From the NCBI GenBank assembly GCA_031364865.1, contig JANLWZ010000246.1, forward strand, positions 1 through 40,272: a DNA stretch of 40,272 bases, read 5' to 3'. The DNA is from Elusimicrobiota bacterium. GTDB taxonomy: Bacteria > Elusimicrobiota > Elusimicrobia > 2-01-FULL-59-12. Both the position numbers and the translations under genes were made by a program. Positions 1 to 36,130 of the stretch are shown here, in pieces. Every line of letters begins with the position of its first letter. The stretch's first letter is position 1. The notes under the pieces were generated by a model. It did no database searches. It saw only the letters and a program-made list of their open reading frames with translations, and was not told the origin of the DNA.

Positions 1-1
1 T

Positions 2-304
2 ATGTCGGGGAACCTCACATCCGATGTGACGACCGTCCGCTCTGTCGACAACATCGGCATTGAGCTTAGTTGGACCGGCGTCCCGGTCGGCACCTTCACA
101 GTCGAAGGCTCCGTCAGCGGCGATACCTGGGTCACGCTTTCCTTTCAAGATCCAACTGGAGCCCTCGTCTCCTCGATCCCAACTGCTGGGGGACCGCACC
201 TCATCAGCCTAATAGACTTTCCCTACGATCAGGTTCGCGTGAAATATACCAGCACCTCAGGTACCGGTGTTCTCCAGTGCTGGCTGATGGCGAAGAGGGC
301 GTAA
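2..304 (+). CDS. hypothetical virion-associated protein, C-terminal part (appears to continue from 40232..40272 across the window junction)
   Basis: Open frame from base 2 to TAA at 302-304. It lies immediately upstream of the fibre gene. It is in frame with the ORF that runs off the 3' end of the window (gtt ga|t atg). Confidence 0.6.
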
Positions 305-308
305 GCTT

Positions 309-1673
309 ATGTCAGACTATAAATTTCCTCCTGTTTCCGGTTCCGGAGGCGGAGGAGGCGGCGAAGTCAATACCGCGTCCAACGTAGGAACGGGCGAAGA
401 TGTCTTCAAAGCCAAAGTCGGCGTAGACCTTCAATTCAAAACGCTGCTCGCAGGAACCGGCATCACGATCACTCCCGGAACGGACGAAGTCACAATCGCA
501 GCTCCTGATACCGGCGATGTAGACGGACCAGCAAGTGCAGCCGACAATTCGCATCCACTTTTCGATGGCGTCACCGGCAAGCTCCTGAAGCAAGGCAATA
601 CCGAAGACAATAGCGTCTCCCTTCAGCCGCTTGTAGATGGAGGCCTCAATCTCGGAAGCCCTTCCAATCGCTGGGTTGGCCTCTATGTCTCCGAGTCCTT
701 TCTCTTTGGCGAAGACTTTATTTCCGGCGAGTTCATTTCACAGACCACGGCGCTAGAACTCTCCTTCGCGCATTACGCAAACACGACACTCGCCCCCACC
801 CTCTTCTTAAGGAAGTCTCGCGGAACCTACGCAACACCCACTTCGGTTGCTAATGGTGACTTACTCCAAACGCTGAGTTTTCAGGGCACAACTGATGGGA
901 CAGGGTCCTTTCGAACCGGAAGCCGAATCGTCGGTGCCGTCTCTGCTGCCATAGTCTCCGGAAACCTGCCTCCTTCGAGTCTTTCCTTCTTCACATCGAA
1001 CACGGCTAATGCCGAAACTGAGAAGCTTCGCATCTCTCACGACGAAAGCCTGATTTTCCCGACGGCGGCTTCACTAGGAACCGTTACCGTCGCAGACCGC
1101 CCTGGCGATGTTTGGATGGGCGGACGGCTCGTTTTCGGAACTGGCGATCTCTCAACCAATCGCAGCATAATCAAGAAAGATACTTCCGGAAACAATCGAC
1201 TGACGATTGCTTCAGACGTGATCCGGCTTTTCCGCTCTGATGATTCGACTTACTACGCCTCTTTCGCTAAGGTTGGAGCTAGAAGCTATTTCACAATCAC
1301 GGATGGCGATATCCTTTTCGATGCCGACGGCGGTGGAAGCATCGGCTCTCGTGATGGCGGAAGCACCTTCGAAAGACCGCTCGACATTTTCCTCTCCCGC
1401 AACCTTCGGGTCGGCCTAGGCGGAGGAATTCGCATCGCCGAGGGCTTAAATGGAACTTCCGGGGCAGTGTCTCTAGTTGCAGGTTCGGCCACTGTTGCTA
1501 CAACAGCCGTGACAGCTACCAGCCGCATCCAACTTACCGGAAACGATGACGGAACAGGAACCCCCGGCTTCCTTCGAGTCACTGCCCGAACTCCAGGCGT
1601 AAGCTTTACGATCACTTCTTCAACTGGGGCCTTGGATGATTCATTGGTCGCCTGGTCGATAACTAATCAGTAG
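309..1673 (+). CDS. tail fibre / receptor-binding protein
   Basis: 454 aa. Gly-rich N-terminus followed by [34 protein letters not shown], a motif I recognise from phage tail-fibre N-termini. Ser/Thr/Gly-rich beta-type composition. Located in the late arm next to the lysis genes. Confidence 0.7.
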
Positions 1674-1686
1674 GAGTAAGAAATAA

Positions 1687-1941
1687 ATGGCCCTTCAGAA
1701 AACAAAAACAGCGAGATCGGGAGCATCCGTTTCCTACCATCGCATCGTCTGTATTAGCTTCGAGAAAAGCCGAGGCGTAGTTGAGATCAGCATCGCCTCT
1801 CACACCGAAGCCCCTGGCTCACTCGAAGCCGTCGAGGTCTCGATGGTTCACCTAAGTGGGCAGAGCGCCTGCCCGTCCTCAAGCGAAGCCTACGCCGCTG
1901 TGAAAACACAGCCGGAGTGGTCGGATGCTACAGACGCCTAA
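1687..1941 (+). CDS. hypothetical protein (possible fibre assembly factor by position)
   Basis: 84 aa ORF with AGGAG upstream. Follows the fibre gene and overlaps the holin start by 17 nt. Confidence 0.45.
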   Translation: MALQKTKTARSGASVSYHRIVCISFEKSRGVVEISIASHTEAPGSLEAVEVSMVHLSGQSACPSSSEAYAAVKTQPEWSDATDA

Positions 1942-2338
1942 AGTCATCGCCTGGATTAAAACCGCGATCCTAACAAGCATCGCGTTTTTCGCTCCTGTAC
2001 ATAAACTTATGTACATGACGGTGATTCTTATTGGCTTCGATCTGGTCACTGGTCTCTGGGCAGCCGTTAAGCGAAAAGAGCGCATCTCTTCCACGAAGCT
2101 GCGCCGCACCGTCGCCAAGACCATCGCCTATCAGACGGCCATCATGCTCTCGGCTATCGTCGAATGGTTCTTCCTTCCCGAAATTCCCTCAATCCGAATC
2201 GTTTCCGCCATGATCGGCATTACGGAGGCTACTAGTGTTCTGGAAAATCTTGAAAGCGTTACTGGCCTCAAGTTCCGCGAAGCTGTCATCTCCAAACTCC
2301 AAGGAAAACGAGATGAGCAACCCCCCTCGGCTGGTTGA
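1925..2338 (+). CDS. holin (Phage_holin_4_1-like)
   Basis: 137 aa with several hydrophobic helices. Carries a GFDLVTG motif and a C-terminal ITEATSVLENL motif, resembling the E..SILEN signature of that holin family. Overlaps the endolysin start. Confidence 0.7.
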   Translation: MLQTPKVIAWIKTAILTSIAFFAPVHKLMYMTVILIGFDLVTGLWAAVKRKERISSTKLRRTVAKTIAYQTAIMLSAIVEWFFLPEIPSIRIVSAMIGITEATSVLENLESVTGLKFREAVISKLQGKRDEQPPSAG

Positions 2339-2756
2339 GACTCGCGTCCGCCACACAAACAATGGCGACTGCCCAAAATGCGAAGAAATCCTTAACCGCT
2401 TCGCGGGATGCCATCCCATGCTCGTCGATTGGTTCGTTCAGCTCCAGAGAAAGCACCCAGACGCGCACATAAGTTGTGCTGGAAGAGGAAGAAAAGACCA
2501 GGAAGACGCGAAGAAAAGAGGGGCCTCGAAGGCGAGCTATGGCGAAAGTGCTCACAACTACAATATGGCGCTAGACCTCTTCAAGATGCATCAAAGCGGA
2601 GCCGAATGGCCGAGAGATTGGTTCAACGAAGTTGTGGGAAAGACCCTTCCGGGCTGGCTAACGTGGTACGGCGCTCCAGGCAGCAAGTTCTTTGAGCTAC
2701 CGCACGTCGAGGTCACGAATTGGCGATCAGACCAACGGAAGAAGTTGGTCGAGTAA
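2313..2756 (+). CDS. endolysin, zinc peptidase M15 family (L-alanyl-D-glutamate / D-Ala-D-Ala peptidase-like)
   Basis: ATG at 2313 preceded by AAGGA. ESAHNYNMALDL resembles the SxHxxGxAxD motif and ELPHVEV resembles the C-terminal D/ExxH(F)E motif of M15 peptidases. Directly follows the holin. Confidence 0.75.
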   Translation: MSNPPRLVETRVRHTNNGDCPKCEEILNRFAGCHPMLVDWFVQLQRKHPDAHISCAGRGRKDQEDAKKRGASKASYGESAHNYNMALDLFKMHQSGAEWPRDWFNEVVGKTLPGWLTWYGAPGSKFFELPHVEVTNWRSDQRKKLVE

Positions 2757-2973
2757 GGTCAATCCCCGACGCAGCCCCCATCTCGAAGGCGCCTTCAAGG
2801 GCCTCTGCCCGACTTTTCCCATCAGCGCAAATCTGAACGAGCACGCAATTATTCTGCCGCGCAAGCGTCATCACTAGCGTATAGCCACGCTTCCCATGAT
2901 GCCGAAACTCAATGAAGTTGATGCGGTATCCACGCGCTTGCGCATTTCTAAGCTTACTCACTTTTCCCACCAT
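2713..2973 (-). CDS. hypothetical protein
   Basis: 86 aa from ATG 2973 with AGAGGA about 11 nt upstream. Overlaps the terL stop by 16 nt and the convergent endolysin 3' end by 44 nt. No recognisable motif. Confidence 0.35.
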   Translation of the reverse strand: MVGKVSKLRNAQARGYRINFIEFRHHGKRGYTLVMTLARQNNCVLVQICADGKSRAEALEGAFEMGAASGIDLTRPTSSVGLIANS

Positions 2974-4343
2974 GGCGTATTGTCCTCTTTTCCTAGGCGC
3001 TCCTCGATGTCGCGCATTTCTTTCTCCCAATAAGCTTCCGTGTTGAAGGCGGGCTCATCCACCTTCGCTTTATATCCCCAATGCGTGCTCTCTCGCCAGG
3101 CATAGAGGAAGGAGTCGCAAAGATGGTTCTCATAGCGGGGATCTTCCTTCTTGCGATCCTCGTCCCACTGTAGCATTTCCAGCTCGTTACGAAACTCCGT
3201 CAACTCAAGATCCAACTGAATCTTCCCCTCAAAAAAATCCGAGTTCACAAGTTCAATATACTCGAACTTTTTTGTCTTCTCTGCCGCTTTGATAGAGATG
3301 CCGTATCGCTTCCGCATTTCTTCGACGATTGTCTTGCCCAAACCGCCAGTATCACAAACCGTGGCAACAGGATTATAGCGAGACTGAAAATCACGAACCA
3401 CATTGACGACCTCCGTAACAATCAATTGCGACCGCTTAAAGGTACTGACCACATGCAAGTTGGGCGATGCCTCTGAGAAGGCCAAAACCGTGATTGCGGT
3501 AGCGTCATTATATCCTAAGTCGACGCCCAAAATATACTGCCAATCCTTCCCGCCAGGAAAGCTACGCATGTTCCGATTTCGGTCAAAGCGATAGACGAGA
3601 TCGCCCTCGGTCTTAACCCACACTCCGCAATACTCGCGGAGATATTGCGGATTATTTGCCGACCAGCGCTTCTTTTTTCGGTAATTCTCTAGCCACTCTG
3701 CCGCATGTTTTATGTACGGGTTATCAAGAAGGGTCCACTTATGGGAAGAATAAGTCTTGTCCGCTCCGGTTGTAGCCTCATAGAAGGGGCCGGTACAGGA
3801 AGCATTGGGAGTGCCGACCAGACACAACGTGCCGTTGAAATCGATCAAGGCGGGAGTAATGATGTCTTCGATCACATAGGTTATGTGGCTGCCGTAGGAT
3901 TGTGCCTCATCCAATACGGCCAATCTGAGGGCCATTCCGCGAAGCGATTCGGCGGCGACGACATCGTTAAGGCCCACACAATAAATAATCGAGTCATTGG
4001 CGAAGGTACAAGTCAGCTCCGTCTCATTGAACTTACAGCCAAGCTCGAAACGCTTCGTCAGCTTCTTCAAAAGCCCCCAAATCACCTTTTTGGCACTGGC
4101 CCTCGTGAGAGCCCCATAGATGCAATTCGCCCCACCGTGGAGTAGACACTCAATGATGAGGTAGACGGCGAGAGCATGGCTCTTTCCTGCGCGACGTGAA
4201 CAGACGGCGCTCTTGAATTTGCCTACATCCTGAATGAAGGCCTTCTGCTGTTGGAAAAGCTCCGCAACTAGCTCATTAGGGACAATCGTTCGCCCAGAGC
4301 GCTCCAGAAGCTCGCGCAGTACTTCTTCAGGCCTGATGGACAT
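2958..4343 (-). CDS. terL: terminase large subunit
   Basis: Walker A-like CSRRAGKSHA, Walker B-like LAVLDEAQ, and a C-terminal RNaseH-like nuclease region (GVDLGYNDATAITVLAF). ATG at 4343 (MSIRPEE). The track ORF extends to a GTG at 4388. Confidence 0.9.
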   Translation of the reverse strand: MSIRPEEVLRELLERSGRTIVPNELVAELFQQQKAFIQDVGKFKSAVCSRRAGKSHALAVYLIIECLLHGGANCIYGALTRASAKKVIWGLLKKLTKRFELGCKFNETELTCTFANDSIIYCVGLNDVVAAESLRGMALRLAVLDEAQSYGSHITYVIEDIITPALIDFNGTLCLVGTPNASCTGPFYEATTGADKTYSSHKWTLLDNPYIKHAAEWLENYRKKKRWSANNPQYLREYCGVWVKTEGDLVYRFDRNRNMRSFPGGKDWQYILGVDLGYNDATAITVLAFSEASPNLHVVSTFKRSQLIVTEVVNVVRDFQSRYNPVATVCDTGGLGKTIVEEMRKRYGISIKAAEKTKKFEYIELVNSDFFEGKIQLDLELTEFRNELEMLQWDEDRKKEDPRYENHLCDSFLYAWRESTHWGYKAKVDEPAFNTEAYWEKEMRDIEERLGKEDNTPWWEK

Positions 4344-4575
4344 AGCTAATAGCCCGGATGTTGCTCCAAGGAATGAGGTAGCGTCCACCAGCGGAAGTAA
4401 CGATCACGCCATTGGCCATCTCCTCCATCTTGACGCGCGTCTTCTCGTCGATCCAGCTCTTAGAGCCGATATCGCGAATCGTTACGGCCTCAACGAGCTG
4501 TAAGGAGAGAATGGCGCTTCCAGCCGAGATCGCGGCATCGTGGGAGCCAGTGGGTTGCATAGATTTCTTTACCAT
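4327..4575 (-). CDS. hypothetical protein
   Basis: 82 aa from ATG 4575 (MVKKSMQ) with GGAG 9 nt upstream. Overlaps the GNAT 3' end and the terL 5' end. Confidence 0.4.
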   Translation of the reverse strand: MVKKSMQPTGSHDAAISAGSAILSLQLVEAVTIRDIGSKSWIDEKTRVKMEEMANGVIVTSAGGRYLIPWSNIRAISYVHQA

Positions 4576-4915
4576 GGATGCTTTCTCCAAAAGCCTTCTC
4601 AATAAGGCTTGTTCCAATTCCTAGTCGTCGGTAGAGCTGCTTCACATATAGGAAGTGAACTATCGGCGTTTTTTCGATTTCTTGCCCGACGATATACCCA
4701 AAGATTTGATTTGGGTCTTCAGCGCTGCACGCCAAGATTGTACGTGCCGTGAAAAGGATTTTCGTAATTGCTTCAGTTTGCGCTTTATAGTAGACATCAT
4801 TTGGCCAATCCCTCGTTAATTTTGAGTTCCGATACGCCTTCAGCCACGAATTGAAGATGAAGGCCTGGTCCTCAGGCCGCGCTGGGCGGAATAGGATCGG
4901 AAGATTCTTTGCCAT
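4490..4915 (-). CDS. GNAT-family N-acetyltransferase
   Basis: ATG 4915 (MAKNLPILFRPARPEDQAFI) with GGAG 7 nt upstream. YRRLGIGTSLIEKA fits the acetyl-CoA binding R/QxxGxG/A motif. Confidence 0.65.
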   Translation of the reverse strand: MAKNLPILFRPARPEDQAFIFNSWLKAYRNSKLTRDWPNDVYYKAQTEAITKILFTARTILACSAEDPNQIFGYIVGQEIEKTPIVHFLYVKQLYRRLGIGTSLIEKAFGESIHGKEIYATHWLPRCRDLGWKRHSLLTAR

Positions 4916-5069
4916 CGTCTTTCTCCGCTTCTTCCATCGCATAAATTGCGCCCTGGAGCTGGAGGGCACGCTGCGTTGAGGCAGCTAGCTCCTTCTCAAG
5001 CTTCGCCCGATGTTCCATCGTCTTCTTCAGATCTTCCTCGAACTTCGTTTTCAGGCTCTGTACTGACAT
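4872..5069 (-). CDS. hypothetical coiled-coil protein
   Basis: 65 aa with a strong SD (AAGGAGAG) 7 nt upstream of ATG 5069. Heptad-like charged sequence. Overlaps both neighbouring genes. Confidence 0.55.
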   Translation of the reverse strand: MSVQSLKTKFEEDLKKTMEHRAKLEKELAASTQRALQLQGAIYAMEEAEKDDGKESSDPIPPSAA

Positions 5070-5397
5070 TGATCGACTCTCCTTTCAAGGACTTCATTAA
5101 GTCCGATTCTTGTGCAAAAAGTTTTTTGGCCAATTCCGCAAGCTGCTCTTTCGTCAGATTCTTCAGCTTCGATTCTTTCTCAATCTCCCGCTCTTCCATG
5201 GCCACAGAGCGAAGAGCCTTAACGCAAACAGAAAGAATCTGTGCATCATCCCCATTCAACCCATTTCCTGACGCCTTGCGAGCAAGCGCATCAATGGTAT
5301 CCGAAATGATGTACTTCGTCCTTTCTACCAGCGAACGGACCGACGGGTTAACGACCTCTATGGAGCCATCAGATCCTTTTTTTACAATTCTACTCAT
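4996..5397 (-). CDS. hypothetical protein (small-terminase candidate by position only)
   Basis: 133 aa from the second ATG (MSRIVKK) with AAGGA 8 nt upstream. Lies upstream of terL in the packaging arm. No diagnostic motif. Confidence 0.5.
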   Translation of the reverse strand: MSRIVKKGSDGSIEVVNPSVRSLVERTKYIISDTIDALARKASGNGLNGDDAQILSVCVKALRSVAMEEREIEKESKLKNLTKEQLAELAKKLFAQESDLMKSLKGESINVSTEPENEVRGRSEEDDGTSGEA

Positions 5398-5902
5398 TCC
5401 CATCGTCCTTTACAACCTTTTTTACCACGAAGTCGAAGCGAGCCGCCTTCTTCGCAATCTCCTCTGCCTCTTCCTTCTCATATCGAGCGTCGGCCATCAT
5501 GCGCTTCTTAATGCGCAGCAGGACCGTAGTCACGTTCTGATGCTTCATGCCCTCTTGTGCCCCAATTGCCCTGTGTGTTGCGCCAATAACATGCTGTGCC
5601 CACATGCGCTTTTCCTTCGGCGTTTTGAAGGTGCCATGGTGGAGGTACCAGCCTGCCTTCTGGAAGTAGAAGACCGTCTGGGGGCGATAGGCCTTCCGCA
5701 GGTTGCTGAAGGGCTCTGTCATGAGGGCGCTGGTCGTATCGCCCTCTATATAATGATATTCCAAATCCTTGAAGCCGGTCGCGCGGAGCTTCTGGTACCA
5801 TTCGGCCTTCAGTTCCAAAAACTCGGGCTTAGTAAAAGTAGCCGGTTCCCTAACTCTTCGCTTTGTCTTTTTCCAGTCTAATCTCTTGGTGCCTGACGAC
5901 AT
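5390..5902 (-). CDS. hypothetical basic protein, possible DNA-binding / small-terminase candidate
   Basis: 170 aa. Basic N-terminus, a WYQKLRATGFKDLE segment and a possible HTH (GMKHQNVTTVLLRIKKRM). Function inferred weakly. Confidence 0.5.
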   Translation of the reverse strand: MSSGTKRLDWKKTKRRVREPATFTKPEFLELKAEWYQKLRATGFKDLEYHYIEGDTTSALMTEPFSNLRKAYRPQTVFYFQKAGWYLHHGTFKTPKEKRMWAQHVIGATHRAIGAQEGMKHQNVTTVLLRIKKRMMADARYEKEEAEEIAKKAARFDFVVKKVVKDDGNE

Positions 5903-6041
5903 AGAGTCCTAGTTGATAACGCCGTTGTAGAAGCTTCGCCTGTTTATAAGAGCGAATTACCGGCGAGAGATACGTCCGCTCAATTGCATCGGCCACTCGA
6001 AAGCCTCCGCCATAAACTTCGATTGTGTACCTACGATTCAT
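5850..6041 (-). CDS. hypothetical protein
   Basis: 63 aa from ATG 6041 (MNRRYTIEVYGGG), which avoids overlap with the upstream gene (stop at 6046). No clear SD. Confidence 0.4.
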   Translation of the reverse strand: MNRRYTIEVYGGGFRVADAIERTYLSPVIRSYKQAKLLQRRYQLGLYVVRHQEIRLEKDKAKS

Positions 6042-6045
6042 AGTT

Positions 6046-6345
6046 CTATTTCGCGAGTGCCGCGCCCACTGCAATACCCGCCAATGCCCCCAGACCAGCA
6101 TAAGCCCACCAAGGCAGAAGAGGGCGATCCCTAATAGCAGCAATTTCTCGTTCATAGGAAGCATCGCGTTGTTTCCTCACTTCATCGGCATACCGCTCTA
6201 TCGCGGACTTCTCGGCCTCTAGCGCCTCTGTGTACTCAATACACGCATTCAGCGCATTGTCACAGTTTCCGGCATAAACAGGTGCCGTCACAAGAGAAAA
6301 TAGCGTAAATACGCTAATTATCAATTTCTGATTTATTGTCGACAT
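6046..6345 (-). CDS. envelope protein with N-terminal signal peptide and C-terminal TM anchor (spanin-like candidate)
   Basis: MSTINQKLIISVFTLFSLVTAPVYAG signal-like N-terminus, charged helical middle, C-terminal LLPWWAYAGLGALAGIAVGAALAK. Overlaps the upstream membrane coiled-coil gene by 32 nt. The start is uncertain; the track ORF extends to 6411. Confidence 0.5.
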   Translation of the reverse strand: MSTINQKLIISVFTLFSLVTAPVYAGNCDNALNACIEYTEALEAEKSAIERYADEVRKQRDASYEREIAAIRDRPLLPWWAYAGLGALAGIAVGAALAK

Positions 6346-6589
6346 AGATCTTAATTGCATCCTGTGCTTTTTTCTTCTTCTCTTCTGAGGCCTTTCGGGC
6401 AGCGTCGACATCGTTTGCGATTTCTCGAAGGCGTTGCTCGTCCGTGTTCTTCAGAAGCTCATGCCGGGCTTCATCGCGCTGCGTCTCCGCCCGATTCAGC
6501 TTAAAGCCGAGATAGGAGAGGACGATCACAACCGCCGCGACAATCGCCGCAACCGGATTTTTAAGGAAGAACTTCAGCGCTTCTATCAT
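6314..6589 (-). CDS. N-terminally membrane-anchored coiled-coil protein (i-spanin-like candidate)
   Basis: ATG 6589 with AAGGA 5 nt upstream. 91 aa with one TM (PVAAIVAAVVIVLSYLGF) followed by a highly charged helical region. Confidence 0.5.
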   Translation of the reverse strand: MIEALKFFLKNPVAAIVAAVVIVLSYLGFKLNRAETQRDEARHELLKNTDEQRLREIANDVDAARKASEEKKKKAQDAIKIYVDNKSEIDN

Positions 6590-9576: not shown

Positions 9577-10056
9577 CTACTCCTGGCAATATGTCGGCTT
9601 CAGATGCAAAATTCCTAACCGACGATAGGCCTTAGCACAGGTCCCGGTCGGGTCATCGTCAAAGGTGATTGTGCTCGTAGGCCGAATGGTTCGAATAAGA
9701 TCGGTGATTTTGTCGGCTTTGTACTCGGCACCAGAGCGCCAGTCATTCGGAGAGCGCATGTAGAGTTCGCCAGTCGGGAACCGTTCTTGTTCCAGCCACT
9801 GAAGGGTCGTGTCGCGGTAGCGCTCGTCGCGGGCCGTCAAATAGACAACGTGTCCATTTAGGCTATGGAGAATTTCGCGCATGGAGGGCACTTGCGGGTC
9901 AGCAAGAAGACGCTTCTCGTCCTGGATCGCCGTCAGCCATTTCAGGAAAGTCTTTTTCCTTCGGTGGTCGGGTTCGGGTCCGGCCTGTTTGTGGCGCTCA
10001 GACCAATCCGCAATGGTGCCGTCAATATCGACGACTATGAGCATCCCCTCATACAT
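9577..10056 (-). CDS. HAD-superfamily phosphatase (nucleotidase / polynucleotide 3'-phosphatase-like)
   Basis: 159 aa. Motif I VVDIDGTIA (DxDxT), motif II YLTAR, C-terminal FDDD acidic motif. Confidence 0.7.
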   Translation of the reverse strand: MYEGMLIVVDIDGTIADWSERHKQAGPEPDHRRKKTFLKWLTAIQDEKRLLADPQVPSMREILHSLNGHVVYLTARDERYRDTTLQWLEQERFPTGELYMRSPNDWRSGAEYKADKITDLIRTIRPTSTITFDDDPTGTCAKAYRRLGILHLKPTYCQE

Positions 10057-10396
10057 CCTGCTTCTTCTCCGGCAACGGCATTCGGCTATTTTTGAAGCGG
10101 TCGTCGAGATTGGGATGGTCTTCGAGCGTCTGAAGGGCCATGCCTAGATTGCACTTTGCGTGGCCTAGGTGAGATATGCCACTCTCTGGGTCGTTGTCTT
10201 CTCCGCACATGAAGGCAAAAATGTGTCGGAGGGCGGCGGAAAGATACCGGGAGATTGCAATGCCATTGCGCCAGTTGTGGTTGCCGTACTTTTTGGCGCC
10301 ATACGTCATACCCAATGCTTCGGCCTCGATACCTTTAGGGGAGAGGAGGGCCATCATGGGTTTCTCGCCGTCGTATTTCTTTCCGCCGCCTTCCAT
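10049..10396 (-). CDS. dATP/dGTP pyrophosphohydrolase-like domain protein (DUF5664-like)
   Basis: 115 aa. KYDGEKP...GAKKYGNHNWRNG...SAALRHIFAF..GED.DPESGISHLGHA matches my memory of that phage family. Confidence 0.55.
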   Translation of the reverse strand: MEGGGKKYDGEKPMMALLSPKGIEAEALGMTYGAKKYGNHNWRNGIAISRYLSAALRHIFAFMCGEDNDPESGISHLGHAKCNLGMALQTLEDHPNLDDRFKNSRMPLPEKKQDV

Positions 10397-24058: not shown

Positions 24059-24192
24059 TTGTTCACCTCTTTCGCCTTGAGTATAGCCCTCAGAGCCTCT
24101 CTCGCCTCATAGAGCGAGGGATAAGTTGAGATCAAGACGCGAACGTCTTGGATCAAGTAGTATACGCTTCGACCTTCAATGATATATGTCAT
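24055..24192 (-). CDS. small hypothetical protein, first gene of the early leftward operon
   Basis: 45 aa from ATG 24192 (MTYIIEG) with GGAG 6 nt upstream. In-frame alternative starts at 24204 and 24345 would run through promoter-like repeats. Confidence 0.5.
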   Translation of the reverse strand: MTYIIEGRSVYYLIQDVRVLISTYPSLYEAREALRAILKAKEVNK

Positions 24193-24215
24193 TGTATTCT
24201 CCATGCAGAATACTA

Positions 24216-24234
24216 TTGCAAGCACGCGGCCAAA
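24216..24234 (-). promoter_or_regulatory. sigma-54-type motif L1 (minus strand TTTGGCCG-CGTGC-TTGCAA)
   Basis: Correct GG-N10-GC spacing. The ATG at 24204 starts 14 nt after the -12 C. Confidence 0.5.
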
Positions 24235-24310
24235 GCGCCACGCACGGCGAATTGTGAAAAGGTGTCTAATTCCACGGCTTTGCCTGAAAGATATACAGTT
24301 TAGGGCTTTG

Positions 24311-24329
24311 TTGCAACTCTCATGCCAAT
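24311..24329 (-). promoter_or_regulatory. sigma-54-type motif L2 (minus strand ATTGGCAT-GAGAG-TTGCAA)
   Basis: TGGCAT-N5-TTGCA. Confidence 0.5.
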
Positions 24330-24359
24330 TTTCGGAAAGATACATATGATATTTTTTTC

Positions 24360-24378
24360 TTGCAAGGCCCGTGCCAAC
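24360..24378 (-). promoter_or_regulatory. sigma-54-type motif L3 (minus strand GTTGGCACGGGCCTTGCAA)
   Basis: Perfect TGGCACG-N4-TTGCA. Confidence 0.6.
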
Positions 24379-24427
24379 GTATTATCATGCAATTATCGGA
24401 CCACGCACTGGCCCCGCGATTGCATTA

Positions 24428-24446
24428 TTGCAAGAATCATGCCAAT
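24428..24446 (-). promoter_or_regulatory. sigma-54-type motif L4 (minus strand ATTGGCAT-GATTC-TTGCAA)
   Basis: TGGCAT-N5-TTGCA. Confidence 0.5.
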
Positions 24447-24464
24447 GCTCGTGTGTGTTCTCTC

Positions 24465-24483
24465 TTGCAAGATACGTGCCAAA
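24465..24483 (-). promoter_or_regulatory. sigma-54-type motif L5 (minus strand TTTGGCACGTATCTTGCAA)
   Basis: Perfect TGGCACG-N4-TTGCA. Confidence 0.6.
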
Positions 24484-24487
24484 CCAA

Positions 24488-24505
24488 GTGGCACAATCTT
24501 TGCAG
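24488..24505 (+). promoter_or_regulatory. sigma-54-type motif R1, rightward (GTGGCAC-AATCT-TTGCAG)
   Basis: Perfect TGGCAC-N5-TTGCA on the plus strand, about 115 nt upstream of the first late-arm ATG (24617). Back-to-back with L5. Confidence 0.6.
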
Positions 24506-24511
24506 GGGGAC

Positions 24512-24533
24512 TGTTCAATCAAACGTTTGAACA
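24512..24533 (+). other. 7-bp inverted repeat TGTTCAA-N8-TTGAACA at the predicted 5' end of the late transcript
   Basis: Read directly from the sequence: arms at 24512-18 and 24527-33. Confidence 0.6.
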
Positions 24534-24547
24534 ACCGATCACCGGAA

Positions 24548-24567
24548 GGGGGGTGGGGGTGGGTGGG
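24548..24567 (+). other. G-quadruplex-forming motif GGGGGGTGGGGGTGGGTGGG
   Basis: Four G-tracts of at least 3 G separated by single T loops, on the sense strand of the late-arm leader. Confidence 0.7.
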
Positions 24568-24616
24568 CGTTTAATGCACAATCTGTGACCAAAACCATTT
24601 TTTGGAAAGAGTAACT

Positions 24617-24997
24617 ATGCGAAAGTATTTAAGAAACATCTTCGCCGCTCTAAAGGCCCCCTTCATGGATGCCCGCAGAGAGGAAGTAGAGAATCTCGCA
24701 AAGACTATGAATAAACACGGCATTCGCTTCCTTCGCATCGGCCACATGGAGATACGCATCGCTCCTGCTGCGACCGCTTCGCGGGAAAACGGCGAAGGCG
24801 TTCAAGAGCTGGTCGTGCCCTTCGAGGATTTGGCCCTCCCGCCCTCTATGCGCCCCGCCACGCGCTCCGAAGCCCTTCCCCACCCCGCAGGCCTACCCTA
24901 CATGGGCGAACCCGCCATTAAGACCGACCCAGCGGAAACGGAAGACGAGCTGCTTTTCTGGTCCTCAGAGGACGACATGCCAAAGGACTCTAAATAG
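24617..24997 (+). CDS. hypothetical protein, first gene of the late arm
   Basis: 126 aa from ATG 24617 (AAGAG upstream). The track start at 24602 is a TTG. Confidence 0.55.
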   Translation: MRKYLRNIFAALKAPFMDARREEVENLAKTMNKHGIRFLRIGHMEIRIAPAATASRENGEGVQELVVPFEDLALPPSMRPATRSEALPHPAGLPYMGEPAIKTDPAETEDELLFWSSEDDMPKDSK

Positions 24998-24999
24998 AG

Positions 25000-26802
25000 A
25001 TGAGTAAACAAGTGCAACTTACGCCTTGGTGGGAAGACGAAAAGAATTCACACTCCGGCATTCAAGCCATTCTGGAGAACCTCCAGTACTCGCAGAGCGT
25101 TCGCTCCGCCGCTAACCTCCGTTACGCTCGCCTCTATGGCAACTTGGACATCTACGGTCTGGCCCCATATCAATACTTCCGCACCGTATCCCAAACAAGT
25201 GACGCTCTGCGAGGCGGTTCCCGCCTAACCTTCAACGTAATCAAAAGCGTGGTCGACACCGTCGGCTCGAAGATCGCCAAACACAAGCCGCGACCCCTCT
25301 TCCTCACGAACGACGGCGATTGGTCTCTCCAGCAGCGCGCCAAACGCTTGAACCGCTTCGTCCAAGGCGTCTTTTACGAAACGGACGCCTACGGCAAAGG
25401 ACAGACCGCCTTCAGAGACGCGGGCATTTTCGGAACCGGCATCCTGAAGGTCTACATCAAGGACGCTCGTCTCTGCATCGAGCGTATCATCCCCGAGGAA
25501 CTCATCGTTGACGCGAGCGAGAGCGTCTACGGCAAGCCCCGCTCCTACTACCAGGTCAAGCACGTTGACCGCCAAGTCCTCCTCCGCATGTTCCCGGACC
25601 ACGAAGGCGCAATCCGCTCCGTTAGGAACACGAGCGAACAGGGCGCCGAGTCGCAGCTTACCTCCGACATGATCAAGGTCACCGAAGCATGGCACTTACC
25701 TTCGGACAAGAAGGCAAAAGATGGCCGACACGTCATAGCTATCGAGAATGATACGCTTTTTAGCGAAGAATACAAACGTGAAGTGCCGCCCTTCATCATT
25801 TACCATTGGACGCCTCCGGTCTTGGGCTTCTACGGAACGGGGTTGGCCGAAGAATTGATCGGCATCCAACTAGAGATCAACAAACTGCTCCGCCAAATTC
25901 AGCTTTCGCATCACCTTCTCTCGACACCGAAGGTCCTCCTAGAGAATGGCTCCAAGATTGTCTCCGCGCACATCAACAACGAAATCGGCGCAATCATCAA
26001 GTACACCGGAACGCCTCCACAGATCGTGGCCTTCCAGACGGTTCACCCAGAGATTTACCTTCACCTCGAACGACTCTATGCTAGAGCATACGAGATCGCC
26101 GGAGTGTCGGCGTTAAGCGCTCAGGCCAAAAAGCCCAGTGGGCTGGACTCAGGTCGAGCGCTTCGAGAATTCAGTGACATCGAGAGTGAGCGCTTCGCCA
26201 TTCAGCAACAGCGCTACGAAGAATTCTACATGGAGCTTTCGCGTCACATCATCGAACTCTCGCGCGAGATCGTAAAAGAACATGGCGGCTTCCGCGTGAA
26301 GGCCCCCAACAAAAAACTGATTGATGAAATCGACTTCAAGGAAGTTAGCCTAGAGGACAGCTCCTACATCCTCCAATGCTTCCCCACAAATTTCCTTCCC
26401 GCGACTCCCGCCGGAAGATTGCAATCGGTCCAAGAGCTGATGACCGCAGGCCTCATCTCCCCCTCGATGGGACTTGCCCTTCTGGACTTCCCTGACCTTG
26501 AAGGCGCGATGAGCCTTGCCAACGCGAACTACAATATTGTGATGTCGTCGCTTGAGAACATCATAGAGAAGGGCGTGTACGAAGCGCCCGAACCCTACAT
26601 GGATCTCTTGACGACCAAAATGCTTTCTCAAATGTTCTACTTAGACGCCAAGAGCAACAAGGTGGACGAGGATAAGCTTGAGCTTCTCCGCCGCTACGTT
26701 GATGCAACCGTGGCGCTCATCAATAAGGCAACTCCACCGACTCCGGTCGGAGCGCCTGCCATGCCAGCAATGCCTACAGGAGGTCCATCAGATGTCGGAT
26801 AG
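25000..26802 (+). CDS. portal (head-to-tail connector) protein
   Basis: 600 aa. Size and position immediately upstream of scaffold and major capsid. No single diagnostic motif read. Confidence 0.7.
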   Translation: MSKQVQLTPWWEDEKNSHSGIQAILENLQYSQSVRSAANLRYARLYGNLDIYGLAPYQYFRTVSQTSDALRGGSRLTFNVIKSVVDTVGSKIAKHKPRPLFLTNDGDWSLQQRAKRLNRFVQGVFYETDAYGKGQTAFRDAGIFGTGILKVYIKDARLCIERIIPEELIVDASESVYGKPRSYYQVKHVDRQVLLRMFPDHEGAIRSVRNTSEQGAESQLTSDMIKVTEAWHLPSDKKAKDGRHVIAIENDTLFSEEYKREVPPFIIYHWTPPVLGFYGTGLAEELIGIQLEINKLLRQIQLSHHLLSTPKVLLENGSKIVSAHINNEIGAIIKYTGTPPQIVAFQTVHPEIYLHLERLYARAYEIAGVSALSAQAKKPSGLDSGRALREFSDIESERFAIQQQRYEEFYMELSRHIIELSREIVKEHGGFRVKAPNKKLIDEIDFKEVSLEDSSYILQCFPTNFLPATPAGRLQSVQELMTAGLISPSMGLALLDFPDLEGAMSLANANYNIVMSSLENIIEKGVYEAPEPYMDLLTTKMLSQMFYLDAKSNKVDEDKLELLRRYVDATVALINKATPPTPVGAPAMPAMPTGGPSDVG

Positions 26803-27711: not shown

Positions 27712-28932
27712 ATGGCTCTAGATCTCACATCCTTTAGTGCAGCGCTGAAAACGCTGTACACGGATAGAAAGATCAACGACCTCGTCTATAAAGACAACGC
27801 CCTTTTGGCAATCATGCCGAAGATGGAGCGTTTCTCAGGCGAGAACTACAAAGTTCCGTTGATCTATGGCAATCCCCAGGCCCGTTCTGCGTCGTTCTCC
27901 AACGCGCAGTCACAGGTCTCCTCGGCTAACTCGAAGCTGAAGGCCTTCCTCTTGACTCGCGACCGGGATTACTCCCTCGCGCAGATCTCGAACGAAGTGC
28001 TCAAAGCATCCGAGAGCGACATGGGCGCGTTTCTCCGCGCTGCTCAGGTGGAAATCGACGGCGCGATGCATAGCATCGTCCGCTCGCTCGCCATCTCCAT
28101 GTTCCGCAGTGGCTCTGGCTCGATTGGTCGCCTCGACCCGACGACGGTCCTCGCCTCCACGAACCTCCAGCTCACGAACGCTGATGACGTGACCAACTTC
28201 GAAGTTGGCCAGGTCCTCGTGGCGTCCGTTGCTGATGGTGGTGGTGCGGTGAAGGCCGGATCGTTGACCGTGGTTGCGGTTAACCGCATCACCGGTGTCG
28301 TGACGATGAGCGTTGCGCTGACGACGGGTATCCCGACGATTGGCTTCAACGACTACATCTTCGCGCAGGGCGATTACGACTCGAAGGTGAAGGGTCTTCA
28401 GGCTTGGCTGCCTTATGGCGGTCCGTCTGCTACCCCGTTCTTCGGAGTAGACCGTACTGCTGATGCGACCCGTTTGGGCGGCATTTGGCAGGATGGTTCA
28501 GCGAAGCCCGTCGAAGAGGCTCTGATCGATCTCGCGAGCTTGATTGCTCGTGAAGGTGGACGGCCTGACGTGTGCATCATGAACTATCAGGACTACGCGA
28601 ATCTGGAAAAGGCGTTGGGCTCCAAGGTGATCTATGACACCATGGAAGCTTACAACATGCCGCAAATCGGCTTCAAGGTGATTAAGATCGCCGGACCGAA
28701 AGGCGACATCAAAGTTGTGGCCGACCAGAACTGCCCAAGTGGGTTCGCGTACATGCTCCAGCTCAATACGTGGGAATTGGCTTCGCTTGGAAAAGCGCCG
28801 AGCCTCTTCAACACGGATGGCTTGGACATGCTCCGTAATCCGACGAGCGATTCGCTCGATATCCGCATCTATTACTATGCGCAGGTATCGTGCAACGCGC
28901 CCGGATTCAACGGTGTCGTGAAGCTCCGCTAG
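27712..28932 (+). CDS. major capsid protein
   Basis: 406 aa with AAGGA SD. Follows the scaffold and is followed by the strongest terminator in the window. Composition is typical of HK97-fold coat proteins. Confidence 0.8.
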   Translation: MALDLTSFSAALKTLYTDRKINDLVYKDNALLAIMPKMERFSGENYKVPLIYGNPQARSASFSNAQSQVSSANSKLKAFLLTRDRDYSLAQISNEVLKASESDMGAFLRAAQVEIDGAMHSIVRSLAISMFRSGSGSIGRLDPTTVLASTNLQLTNADDVTNFEVGQVLVASVADGGGAVKAGSLTVVAVNRITGVVTMSVALTTGIPTIGFNDYIFAQGDYDSKVKGLQAWLPYGGPSATPFFGVDRTADATRLGGIWQDGSAKPVEEALIDLASLIAREGGRPDVCIMNYQDYANLEKALGSKVIYDTMEAYNMPQIGFKVIKIAGPKGDIKVVADQNCPSGFAYMLQLNTWELASLGKAPSLFNTDGLDMLRNPTSDSLDIRIYYYAQVSCNAPGFNGVVKLR

Positions 28933-35200: not shown

Positions 35201-36130
35201 ATGGCAAACATTGGCGGAGCAGCTTCAGGTCTCGCAGGAGGCGCCTCAACTGGGGCAGCCCTCGGCTCTGTAATTCCAGGCATCGGAACAGCCATCGGCG
35301 GAGTGGTCGGCGGTCTGATTGGCGGAATTGGCGGCCTATTCAGCGGTGGAGATGACCCGGAGGTTGTCCAAGAACTATACAGACAGCCTGGACTAGAAGC
35401 CGCACAGGGCCGACTTGGCACGCTTCTTGCGCAACAGCAGCAGCCCGGAAGAGCTGTCGCAGCGCTTGAAGGCTCACAGCAATTTCGCGGTCAGCAGCTC
35501 AGTCTCGCCGAACAGCTCGCACAGGCGGCAGGCGGCCAAGGCCCTTCCATCGCCGATCAGCAGACGAAGATGGCGCAGGAAAATGCGATGGCGCAGGCGC
35601 TTGCGCTTCAAAGCTCGCAGCGCGGTGGGAACGTCGGCCTTCAGCAGCGGCAGACGCTGGGCTCGATTGCGCAGCAGAATCAGGCGCTTGCACAGCAAGG
35701 ACAGCTCGCAAAGCTTCAGGAAATTTTCACAGCCCGCGCAGCCCTCGGAGATTTGCTTGCACAAGGGCGCTCTGGTGATGTACAATTGGGACAGGGCTTT
35801 ACCCAAGAACAGGCTGCACGAACGCAGGGCGCAATCGGACTCGAAGGCGTCTTGGCTCAGCGTGAGCTGGCGCAAGCAGCCGCGAATCAGAATCTCGAAG
35901 GCGCTCTCCGCAATGTCGACGAGGAAGAACAGAAAAGAGCCCGTCAGGACTTCGGAGCCGCTCTCGGCGCTGCCAGTTCCTTAGGCGGCTTCCTCAGCTC
36001 ACAGTCGAAGCCTAGCGGAACCTCAGTGGCTGCCGACGGAATTCGAACAGCAAATATGGTAGGAAACGCTTCCAATATAAACGTGGGCTCCGCGCTCACG
36101 AGTGGCCTCAAGTTCCTCGGAGGCAAATAA
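35201..36130 (+). CDS. internal virion / ejection protein candidate
   Basis: 309 aa. Gly-zipper hydrophobic N-terminus (GGAASGLAGGASTGAALGSVIPGIGTAIGGVVGGLIGGIGG) followed by a Gln/Ala-rich helical region. Confidence 0.5.
   Translation: MANIGGAASGLAGGASTGAALGSVIPGIGTAIGGVVGGLIGGIGGLFSGGDDPEVVQELYRQPGLEAAQGRLGTLLAQQQQPGRAVAALEGSQQFRGQQLSLAEQLAQAAGGQGPSIADQQTKMAQENAMAQALALQSSQRGGNVGLQQRQTLGSIAQQNQALAQQGQLAKLQEIFTARAALGDLLAQGRSGDVQLGQGFTQEQAARTQGAIGLEGVLAQRELAQAAANQNLEGALRNVDEEEQKRARQDFGAALGAASSLGGFLSSQSKPSGTSVAADGIRTANMVGNASNINVGSALTSGLKFLGGK
35415..35431 (+). promoter_or_regulatory. intragenic sigma-54 consensus match CTTGGCACGCTTCTTGCG
   Basis: Perfect TGGCAC-N5-TTGC on the sense strand inside 35201..36130. 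Confidence 0.3.

Follow-up and report, generated by a model that had tools for sequence, protein, structure and literature searches.

The 40,272-bp stretch of DNA analysed here (contig JANLWZ010000246.1, referred to at its full length as the window) resembles the complete genome of an uncultured, podophage-type virus. Its genes lie in two divergent arms, and the 425-bp control region between them (24193-24616) holds an array of five strong and three weak sites of the form TGGCAY-N5-TTGCA, which resemble the -24/-12 elements of sigma-54 promoters. The leftward arm opens with six open reading frames (ORFs) without relatives (ORFans) and starts at 24192 or 24204, and the rightward arm starts with an ATG at 24617. 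These borders agree with those given by a preceding interpretation of the letters alone (the sequence-only reading). From 24617 onwards, a small protein, the portal, a scaffold-like protein, the major capsid protein and tail proteins are encoded. The rightward arm continues across the ends of the window, where a small ORF stops at the last base and an ATG lies at base 2; this suggests that the two ends form a circular junction.

The sites were scored with a weight matrix that was derived solely from arrays in unrelated IMG/VR contigs, because circularity was to be avoided. Four strong sites point leftward, namely TGGCATGAGAGTTGCA (24312-24327, 21.3 bits), TGGCACGGGCCTTGCA (24361-24376, 23.4 bits), TGGCATGATTCTTGCA (24429-24444, 25.9 bits, the strongest of all) and TGGCACGTATCTTGCA (24466-24481, 23.3 bits, predicted start at ~24455). 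The fifth, TGGCACAATCTTTGCA (24489-24504, 18.2 bits), points rightward and has its predicted start at ~24515, about 100 nt ahead of the ATG of the structural operon at 24617. The weak sites are TGGCCGCGTGCTTGCA on the minus strand (24217-24232, <10 bits), TGGTCCGATAATTGCA on the minus strand (24388-24403, 11.4 bits) and TGGCCCCGCGATTGCA on the plus strand (24409-24424). The first of them keeps the GG-N10-GC spacing, and its predicted start at ~24206 lies immediately upstream of the first leftward ORF. The last stands face-to-face with the strongest site, their -12 elements being 4 nt apart. Two further sites lie outside the array. An isolated perfect site, TGGCACTCGCTTTGCA (20410-20425, minus strand, 12.1 bits), lies between genes, 50 bp upstream of the ATG that opens the second leftward gene block (20359) and in the same direction; its predicted start at ~20399 falls 40 nt before this ATG. 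The other, TGGCACGCTTCTTGCG (35416-35431, plus strand, 17.8 bits), lies within an ORF (35201-36130) and is not conserved in L011, a related contig described below; its status is uncertain. Altogether, the window contains four exact matches to the consensus TGGCAC-N5-TTGCW and is biased in strand, with five or six leftward sites versus one or two rightward ones.

All six copies listed by the sequence-only reading were found where it had placed them, and the three that it called perfect matches (24361 and 24466 on the minus strand, 24489 on the plus strand) are indeed perfect. Its pattern for the five plus-strand copies, TTGCAAG-N3-CRTGCCAA, holds broadly, but the copy at 24216 deviates strongly (TTGCAAG-CAC-GCGGCCAA, the complement of the weak minus-strand site) and the one at 24311 by a single base (TTGCAAC). 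It had overlooked the two weak sites at 24388 and 24409, the perfect site at 20410 and the intragenic one at 35416. The scan with a matrix and shuffled controls that it had proposed confirmed the enrichment. With up to one mismatch to TGGCAC-N5-TTGCW, nine matches were counted in the window, whereas 100 dinucleotide shuffles gave 1.19 on average and never as many as nine. With the independent matrix, six matches of at least 16 bits were obtained versus 0.07 expected from Markov simulations, five of them within 24312-24504. Sigma-70-type promoter matches were not enriched between 19500 and 25500 (8 versus 5.7 ± 2.6 in shuffles). A sigma-70 reading with TTGCAA as the -35 element (TTGACA, to be followed by TATAAT at 16-18 bp) was rejected, as a -10-like hexamer is rightly spaced in only two repeats. 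A coding repeat was likewise rejected: an 88-aa ORF (24322-24588) spans the array, but the period in relatives is 28 bp, which is no multiple of three.

Relatives were chosen by portal homology only (54-61% identity) and independently of the motif, which gave eight contigs. Four of them (54-60% portal identity) carry an array of five to seven sites at the same place, namely L011 (seven sites with an exact 28-bp period), L015 (five sites) as well as L140 and L141 (six sites each). L139 has two weaker sites, L012 starts inside a site, and L013 and L014 break precisely at the spot of the array. In the relatives' arrays, only the -24 and -12 elements are kept, and the spacers and the stretches between sites vary; conservation of GG and GC in related phages, named by the sequence-only reading as a check on its claim, is present. 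More distant portal relatives (35-49% identity) have no arrays and a different gene order. The gene next to the array varies in its orientation within the family. In the window, the first rightward ORF (24617-24997, plus strand, 126 aa) has the C-terminus ELLFWS and is followed by the portal gene. The gene ahead of the portal encodes a small protein with the ending EELLFWS in the window as well as in L012, L014 and L015. It is inverted in four relatives (L011 3811-4110, L013 197-517, L140 1450-1719 and L141 3342-3701, all on the minus strand), and hardly any intergenic space separates it there from the portal start; a small module has thus been flipped within the family.

The arrays are not restricted to this family. 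In IMG/VR, pairs of TGGC-N7-TTGCA elements separated by 8-16 nt were found in at least 120 loci, and the reversed pattern in 14. Three or more sites within 400 bp are present in 94 of the retrieved loci, and 9-15 sites were counted in several. A strict pattern of three sites in a row was found in 74 IMG/VR loci and in at least 120 metagenome loci, for which the chance expectation is practically nil. The contexts are phage-like: 61 loci encode a large terminase, about 40 loci were counted for each of a 129-aa AT-hook protein, an M15 peptidase and a second portal type, and further neighbours are a T7-type primase-helicase, ThyX and GP88. The array-bearing loci span 33-65% GC and differ in their terminases and portals. 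In a large IMG/VR group, the array lies ~280 bp from the small AT-hook gene, which precedes the large terminase. Searches with the portal, terminase, primase and AT-hook protein of the main group gave no cultured relative. Roseophage CRP-125, examined as a test case, has no arrays; it is an ordinary autographivirus with an RNA polymerase of its own. The Cys-rich GP88-family protein (PF17338) is the first gene after the majority-strand sites in at least 12 loci, at a distance of 150-850 bp, among them L030 (2997-3701), L067, L084, L087, L120, L116, L039 and L137. It is also encoded in L011. GP88 and DUF932 were considered as shared candidate factors and rejected, as neither occurs in the window.

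The most extreme case is L045, a large phage genome from IMG/VR (147,530 bp), with 45 sigma-54-like sites in 6.5 kb (1-6511) among many small ORFs and ~25 sites on both strands within 700 bp. In two contigs of ~94 kb each, L037 (2728-2805) and L119 (3346-3423), three copies of GGGCAGGTAGCTTGCA, repeated every 31 bp, are placed immediately upstream of three canonical sites, which are repeated every 29 bp; GGGCAGGTAGCTTGCA has a variant -24 element (GGGCAG) and keeps GG-N10-GC. The array is a real, conserved and widespread feature. The sequence-only reading had considered such arrays undescribed in phages, and a full-text search of the literature, in which subscription-only papers were not covered, likewise turned up no account of sigma-54 sites in tandem arrays in phages and only single sigma-54-like phage promoters (YuA). 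The single element type is known; what appears to be new is its occurrence in dense arrays on both strands of phage control regions, with no phage-encoded bacterial enhancer-binding protein (bEBP) alongside.

The assignment to sigma-54 is based on several independent properties of the motif. The published sigma-54 consensus is TGGCAC-N5-7-TTGCT (PMC12316311). In the portal-defined family, TGGCAY-N5-TTGC occurs 20 times versus 0-1 times for the other spacers between N2 and N9, and in the IMG/VR loci the N5 spacing was counted 461 times versus 2-6 times for other spacings. A logo of 433 unique sites showed preferences at positions that had not been used in the selection, namely T (0.67; Y 0.83) at -27, G (0.66) at -20 and R (0.78) at -19, as well as A/T at -11. 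The extended sigma-54 consensus of Barrios et al. 1999 reportedly reads YTGGCACGrNNNTTGCW. The two half-sites are consistently asymmetric, the first containing GG and the second TG, in which they differ from the sites of tandem homodimers. A protein family shared by all array-bearing phages was not found, and a motif that is constant across lineages and from 33 to 65% GC without such a family points to a conserved host factor rather than a phage operator. The claim of the sequence-only reading that these are sigma-54-type elements is thus borne out by the spacing, the extended consensus, the conservation in relatives and the recurrence in unrelated phages. Judged from the sequences, it is strongly supported that the sites are -24/-12 elements of the sigma-54 type and neither a chance repeat nor a phage-specific operator.

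The operator explanation deserves a closer look, as part of the evidence can be read in its favour. In this case, the sites would belong to a genetic switch as its operators and be bound by a phage regulator or by a very divergent phage sigma-54-like factor of coinciding specificity. TKGCA-N6-TTGCA is formally an 11-bp direct repeat, tandem winged-helix dimers bind such direct repeats, and the face-to-face pairs form 37-bp palindromes. The early ORFs of the window are all ORFans without family match, which leaves room for a DNA-binding protein. A possible precedent for a divergent factor is gp2 of Pectobacterium phage Q19, for which a weak HHpred similarity to sigma-54 has been reported (PMC7693777). 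Against this stand the occurrence of the same motif across 33-65% GC and among unrelated structural modules without a shared protein family, the fixed asymmetry of the half-sites and the agreement with sigma-54 even at the degenerate positions -27, -20 and -19. Operators should co-vary with a phage binding protein and differ between unrelated phages, and neither was observed. We therefore regard this explanation as improbable.

Beyond the array, the rightward side carries two more conserved elements. A G-quadruplex-type tract, GGGGGGTGGGGGTGGGTGGG (24548-24567, plus strand), lies downstream of the last rightward site on the non-template strand. It is followed by a leader, ATCTGTGACC-AAACCATTTTTTGG-...TAACTA (24581-24616, plus strand), that reaches up to the first rightward gene. 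Corresponding tracts are present in L011 (3531-3550), L015 (1603-1618), L139 (5193), L140 (1308) and L141 (3195), in every case 17-45 nt past the last rightward site and followed by the conserved leader. L012, L013 and L014 end at or beside the tract. In an alignment of seven relatives (A2), the leader has the consensus ATCTGTGAC(C/G)-(A/G)AACCAYTTTTT(T)RG-...TAAGTA/TAACTA. An Rfam scan of 19500-25500 gave no known RNA family, and the leader is without an Rfam match. Motifs of the G-quadruplex type were found within 300 bp of 11 out of 94 arrays, and 37 were counted in 1.19 Mb overall. Possible roles of the tract are a structure in the 5'-leader, an R-loop or origin element, or an aid in DNA melting.

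This tract brings up the possibility that the array is a replication origin, made of iterons or of promoters with a G-rich R-loop element, or else a pac/cos site of the terminase. The succession of array and G tract in the window family recalls transcription-primed origins such as those of ColE1, mitochondrial CSB II and the T7 primary origin. Many contigs end in or beside arrays, and the position next to the AT-hook and terminase genes in the large IMG/VR group would suit packaging. Contig breaks are, however, expected at tandem repeats and G runs through assembly alone, and the window terminase gene (2958-4388, in the leftward arm) is 20 kb away from the array. Sites of phage-specific initiators or small terminases should differ among unrelated phages, whereas the motif is constant; the arrays are not the lineage-specific elements beside or within a small-terminase gene that pac/cos sites would be. 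An R-loop origin would still need active promoters. Moreover, the window has a separate region of the origin type, an AT-rich (45% GC), intergenic, iteron-like block at 20540-21080, in which TGTCTACAT/ATGTAGACA occurs about nine times and GAGTTAAGTCTATG and TTGTCCCAGAA twice each. This block is probably the replication origin. L011 has its own iteron block at 2500-2640 with six copies of GAAGCCTCGATTAAGGG. An origin or packaging function of the array is accordingly very improbable.

Two trusted flanking genes were available for 61 arrays, of which 47 are located in divergent intergenic regions and only two in convergent ones. Neighbouring sites on the same strand are 25-29 bp apart. Neighbours on opposite strands are arranged either face-to-face, with their -12 elements 2-5 nt apart, or back-to-back, with ~26 from start to start. 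In the layout seen most frequently, several sites follow one another on one strand, and towards the downstream end of this run one to three sites of the other strand are interspersed ('+++-+' or '+++-+-+-+'). L140, L141 and L015 are built in this way, and the bias is reversed in the window. A placement upstream of genes and in their direction was seen for the window sites 24489 (plus strand) and 20410 (minus strand) as well as for the leftward sites.

The genes on both sides of the window array give the following picture. The first leftward ORF (24055-24204, minus strand, start at 24192 or 24204) is an ORFan and heads a run of small ORFans from 24204 to 22084 without family match. Further on, the leftward arm encodes a 3'-5' exonuclease, a VapE/D5-type helicase, a primase-like protein, a MazZ-like pyrophosphatase and a HAD phosphatase, and also DNA polymerase A, RuvC, GNAT and the large terminase. 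On the rightward side, the portal is of the SU10/P22 type (25000-26802, plus strand) and the major capsid protein is encoded at 27712-28932 (plus strand). The latter is ~20% identical to those of Arthrobacter phages, and no close isolate phage was found; a megablast search with half of the window gave no match. A tRNA search of the window was negative. A rhomboid-family intramembrane protease (21155-21874, Pfam E-value 3e-12) is encoded by the lone plus-strand gene within the leftward arm and is an unusual cargo gene for a phage. The N-terminal domain of a MazZ-type dATP/dGTP diphosphohydrolase (PF18909, E-value 2.5e-28; 10049-10396, minus strand) lies beside the HAD phosphatase, and L139 has a domain of this type as well (495-821). 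This neighbourhood may indicate that the nucleotide pool is edited or the DNA modified; a PurZ-like gene was not seen. The leftward arm also contains a collagen-repeat protein (18859-19509, minus strand), and a tail-fibre-like protein (309-1673, plus strand) carries a C-terminal intramolecular chaperone domain of the K1-lyase type.

Sigma-54 is the sole bacterial sigma factor that is unable to open DNA without an ATP-driven activator, and it is regarded as a system of low abundance that is tightly gated and serves special host regulons. We infer binding of the RNA polymerase holoenzyme with sigma-54 (E-sigma-54), promoter activity and an interference logic at the array. The proposal that these sites for host E-sigma-54 are the main promoters of the phage and drive both of its arms is the most parsimonious of those considered and, in our estimation, evenly poised. 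The minus-strand sites at 24312, 24361, 24429 and 24466 together with the weak ones would drive the leftward arm with the ORFan, replication and terminase genes, and the site at 24489 would drive the rightward operon for portal, capsid and tail via the conserved G-rich leader. The site at 20410 would restart transcription of the second leftward block, past the rhomboid gene and the iteron region. Stacked sites may raise the odds of capturing scarce E-sigma-54, which would be poised as a closed complex. A minority-strand site embedded face-to-face would make occupancy mutually exclusive, and the two arms could compete by promoter interference. The open complex would have to be triggered by a factor that the phage does not visibly encode; candidates are a phage protein of a new kind and a host bEBP, which would work either from solution or at an enhancer that has escaped recognition.

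A number of observations weigh against promoters of this kind, the first being the lack of a recognisable activator. Pfam searches were performed on 40 ORFs of the window and PHROGs searches on 20, the window was scanned for GAFTGA, Walker A and RpoN-box motifs, and PDB sequence searches were carried out with its two largest unassigned proteins. No Sigma54_activat domain and no GAFTGA or Walker pattern of a bEBP was present in the window, and neither an RpoN domain nor a sigma factor nor an RNA polymerase was detected in it. The only P-loop proteins of the window are the VapE/D5-type helicase and the terminase. The statement of the sequence-only reading that a bEBP, an RpoN-like protein and a phage RNA polymerase are absent therefore holds after domain, profile and motif searches. 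Around arrays elsewhere, 1,689 + 987 flanking ORFs were without a bEBP signature. A phage-made activator could not yet be present if the first-expressed genes are among those on the array side. A recognisable enhancer common to the loci was not found either. Palindromes, GGACC-N5-GGTCC and two copies of GGTCCAATAAGACC, lie directly upstream of the array in L140 (1091-1133) and L141 (2889-2903 and 3024-3037) and are candidate enhancer sites for a dimeric activator there; as a general enhancer they were rejected, since they occur in these two contigs only and not in the window or L011. A scan of genome contigs with the portal, aimed at the host, gave only two array-free contigs (39-41% identity) from Saccharibacteria bins of metagenome-assembled genomes; the promoter proposal presupposes a host with rpoN.

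The geometry adds to these points. Neighbouring sites cannot all hold polymerase at once because their spacing (26-29 bp from start to start) is smaller than one holoenzyme footprint, and face-to-face pairs place each predicted start within the partner site. Copy numbers of 9-25 (L030, L045) would seem to exceed any need for promoter strength. The majority orientation flips among close relatives, being mostly leftward in the window and mostly rightward in L011, L140 and L141, and in L140 and L141 at least 580 bp separate the sole leftward site from the gene that opens the leftward arm. Most sites of the large IMG/VR group face away from the packaging operon, toward small ORFs that often start with GP88, and one to three sites face the operon. 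Strong sites outside arrays are few (16 in 675 kb) and mostly intragenic, and none fronts a gene.

Several of these properties would be expected if the arrays bound sigma-54 or E-sigma-54 chiefly as a trap or roadblock and not for the initiation of phage mRNA. As a trap, dense sites of indifferent orientation on the replicating genome would hold the small sigma-54 pool in dead-end closed complexes, whereby sigma-54 regulons (stress, RNA repair, motility, defence) would be shut or a competitor for core polymerase removed. As a roadblock, bound complexes would insulate the two arms. E-sigma-54 forms stable closed complexes without an activator, and a trap needs none, which fits the complete absence of a bEBP. 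It also fits the tight packing with up to ~25 copies in 700 bp (L045), the mixed and flipping orientation and the near-lack of isolated, promoter-placed sites outside arrays. On the other hand, the arrays are almost confined to the divergent control region and in most of them at least one site faces each arm; the perfect single site of the window at 20410 is correctly placed, and GP88 as a conserved first gene follows the majority orientation at 150-850 bp in at least 12 IMG/VR loci. Trapped holoenzyme also costs core polymerase that the phage needs, and we know of no benefit of sequestering sigma-54. Titration or roadblocking as the chief function is hence rather unlikely, though it is the main alternative. 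The sequence-only reading had offered both host-dependent promoters and a sink for closed complexes. Its claim at the level of the motif is strongly supported, but with regard to function the sink fits some features at least as well as promoters do, because of the tight packing, the face-to-face pairs and the flip in orientation between close relatives.

In its sequence, the element agrees with the definition of a sigma-54 promoter; a cognate bEBP, which also belongs to this definition, is not seen in the phage genome. Bacterial promoters such as glnAp2, pspA and Pu share with the arrays the core TGGCAC-N5-TTGCW, the 10-bp distance of GG and GC and the preferences at -27, -20, -19 and -11. Cellular sigma-54 promoters, however, occur singly, and each has a bEBP of its own and an enhancer that lies 80-150 bp upstream, whereas the phage arrays consist of 5-25 copies on both strands, 26-29 bp apart, and have no shared recognisable enhancer and no bEBP gene. 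For Pseudomonas phage YuA, a sigma-54-like promoter was described by Ceyssens et al. 2008, as cited in a preprint (bioRxiv 10.1101/2023.10.13.562163). Like the window phage, YuA is without its own RNA polymerase according to that citing account, which reports a host sigma-54-type promoter. As presented there, it is one sigma-54-like promoter among sigma-70 and phage-specific ones, and neither a tandem array nor the central control region.

Stacking and opposition of promoters are familiar from other phages. The early promoters A1, A2 and A3 of T7 lie at the left end of its genome and are strong sigma-70 promoters for the host polymerase, three in number, ~90-125 bp apart, in one orientation and activator-free. 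They resemble the array as stacked host-polymerase promoters that open a podophage transcription unit; the sigma factor and the geometry differ. In coliphage 186, the sigma-70 promoters pR and pL stand face-to-face 62 bp apart, and together with a repressor they give rise to transcriptional interference. A strong promoter overlapped by a weak opposing one, with mutual exclusion, is what this phage has in common with the array, in which, in contrast, the -12 elements are only 2-5 nt apart and embedded in a repeat array. Late transcription of T4 uses gp55/gp33 and the gp45 sliding clamp as a mobile enhancer (PMC2988020). The late promoters of T4 stay closed until an energy-dependent, enhancer-like activator arrives, which is similar to what is proposed here; T4 differs in encoding its own sigma factor and co-activator and in its simple late promoter box, TATAAATA.

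A more general proposal, according to which a sizeable set of uncultured tailed phages of several lineages, devoid of their own polymerase and sigma factor, route their whole transcription via tandem, in part face-to-face arrays for host E-sigma-54, the closed complexes being opened without a canonical phage bEBP, is tentative, and we consider it possible with the balance somewhat against it. The opening would call for a new class of activator or bypass factor, or for a host bEBP that is switched on by infection. Stacked sigma-54 sites without an activator imply either a new way of firing or bypassing E-sigma-54 or the capture of the host's sigma-54 pool, and sigma-54 trap arrays would be equally novel. 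The array may supply a compact natural device for tight, high-gain synthetic promoters. As hosts must have rpoN and the pattern recurs in hundreds of environmental contigs, the arrays are also a possible marker of host range. Either interpretation, if true, would mean a new mode of phage takeover and possibly new sigma-54 effectors.

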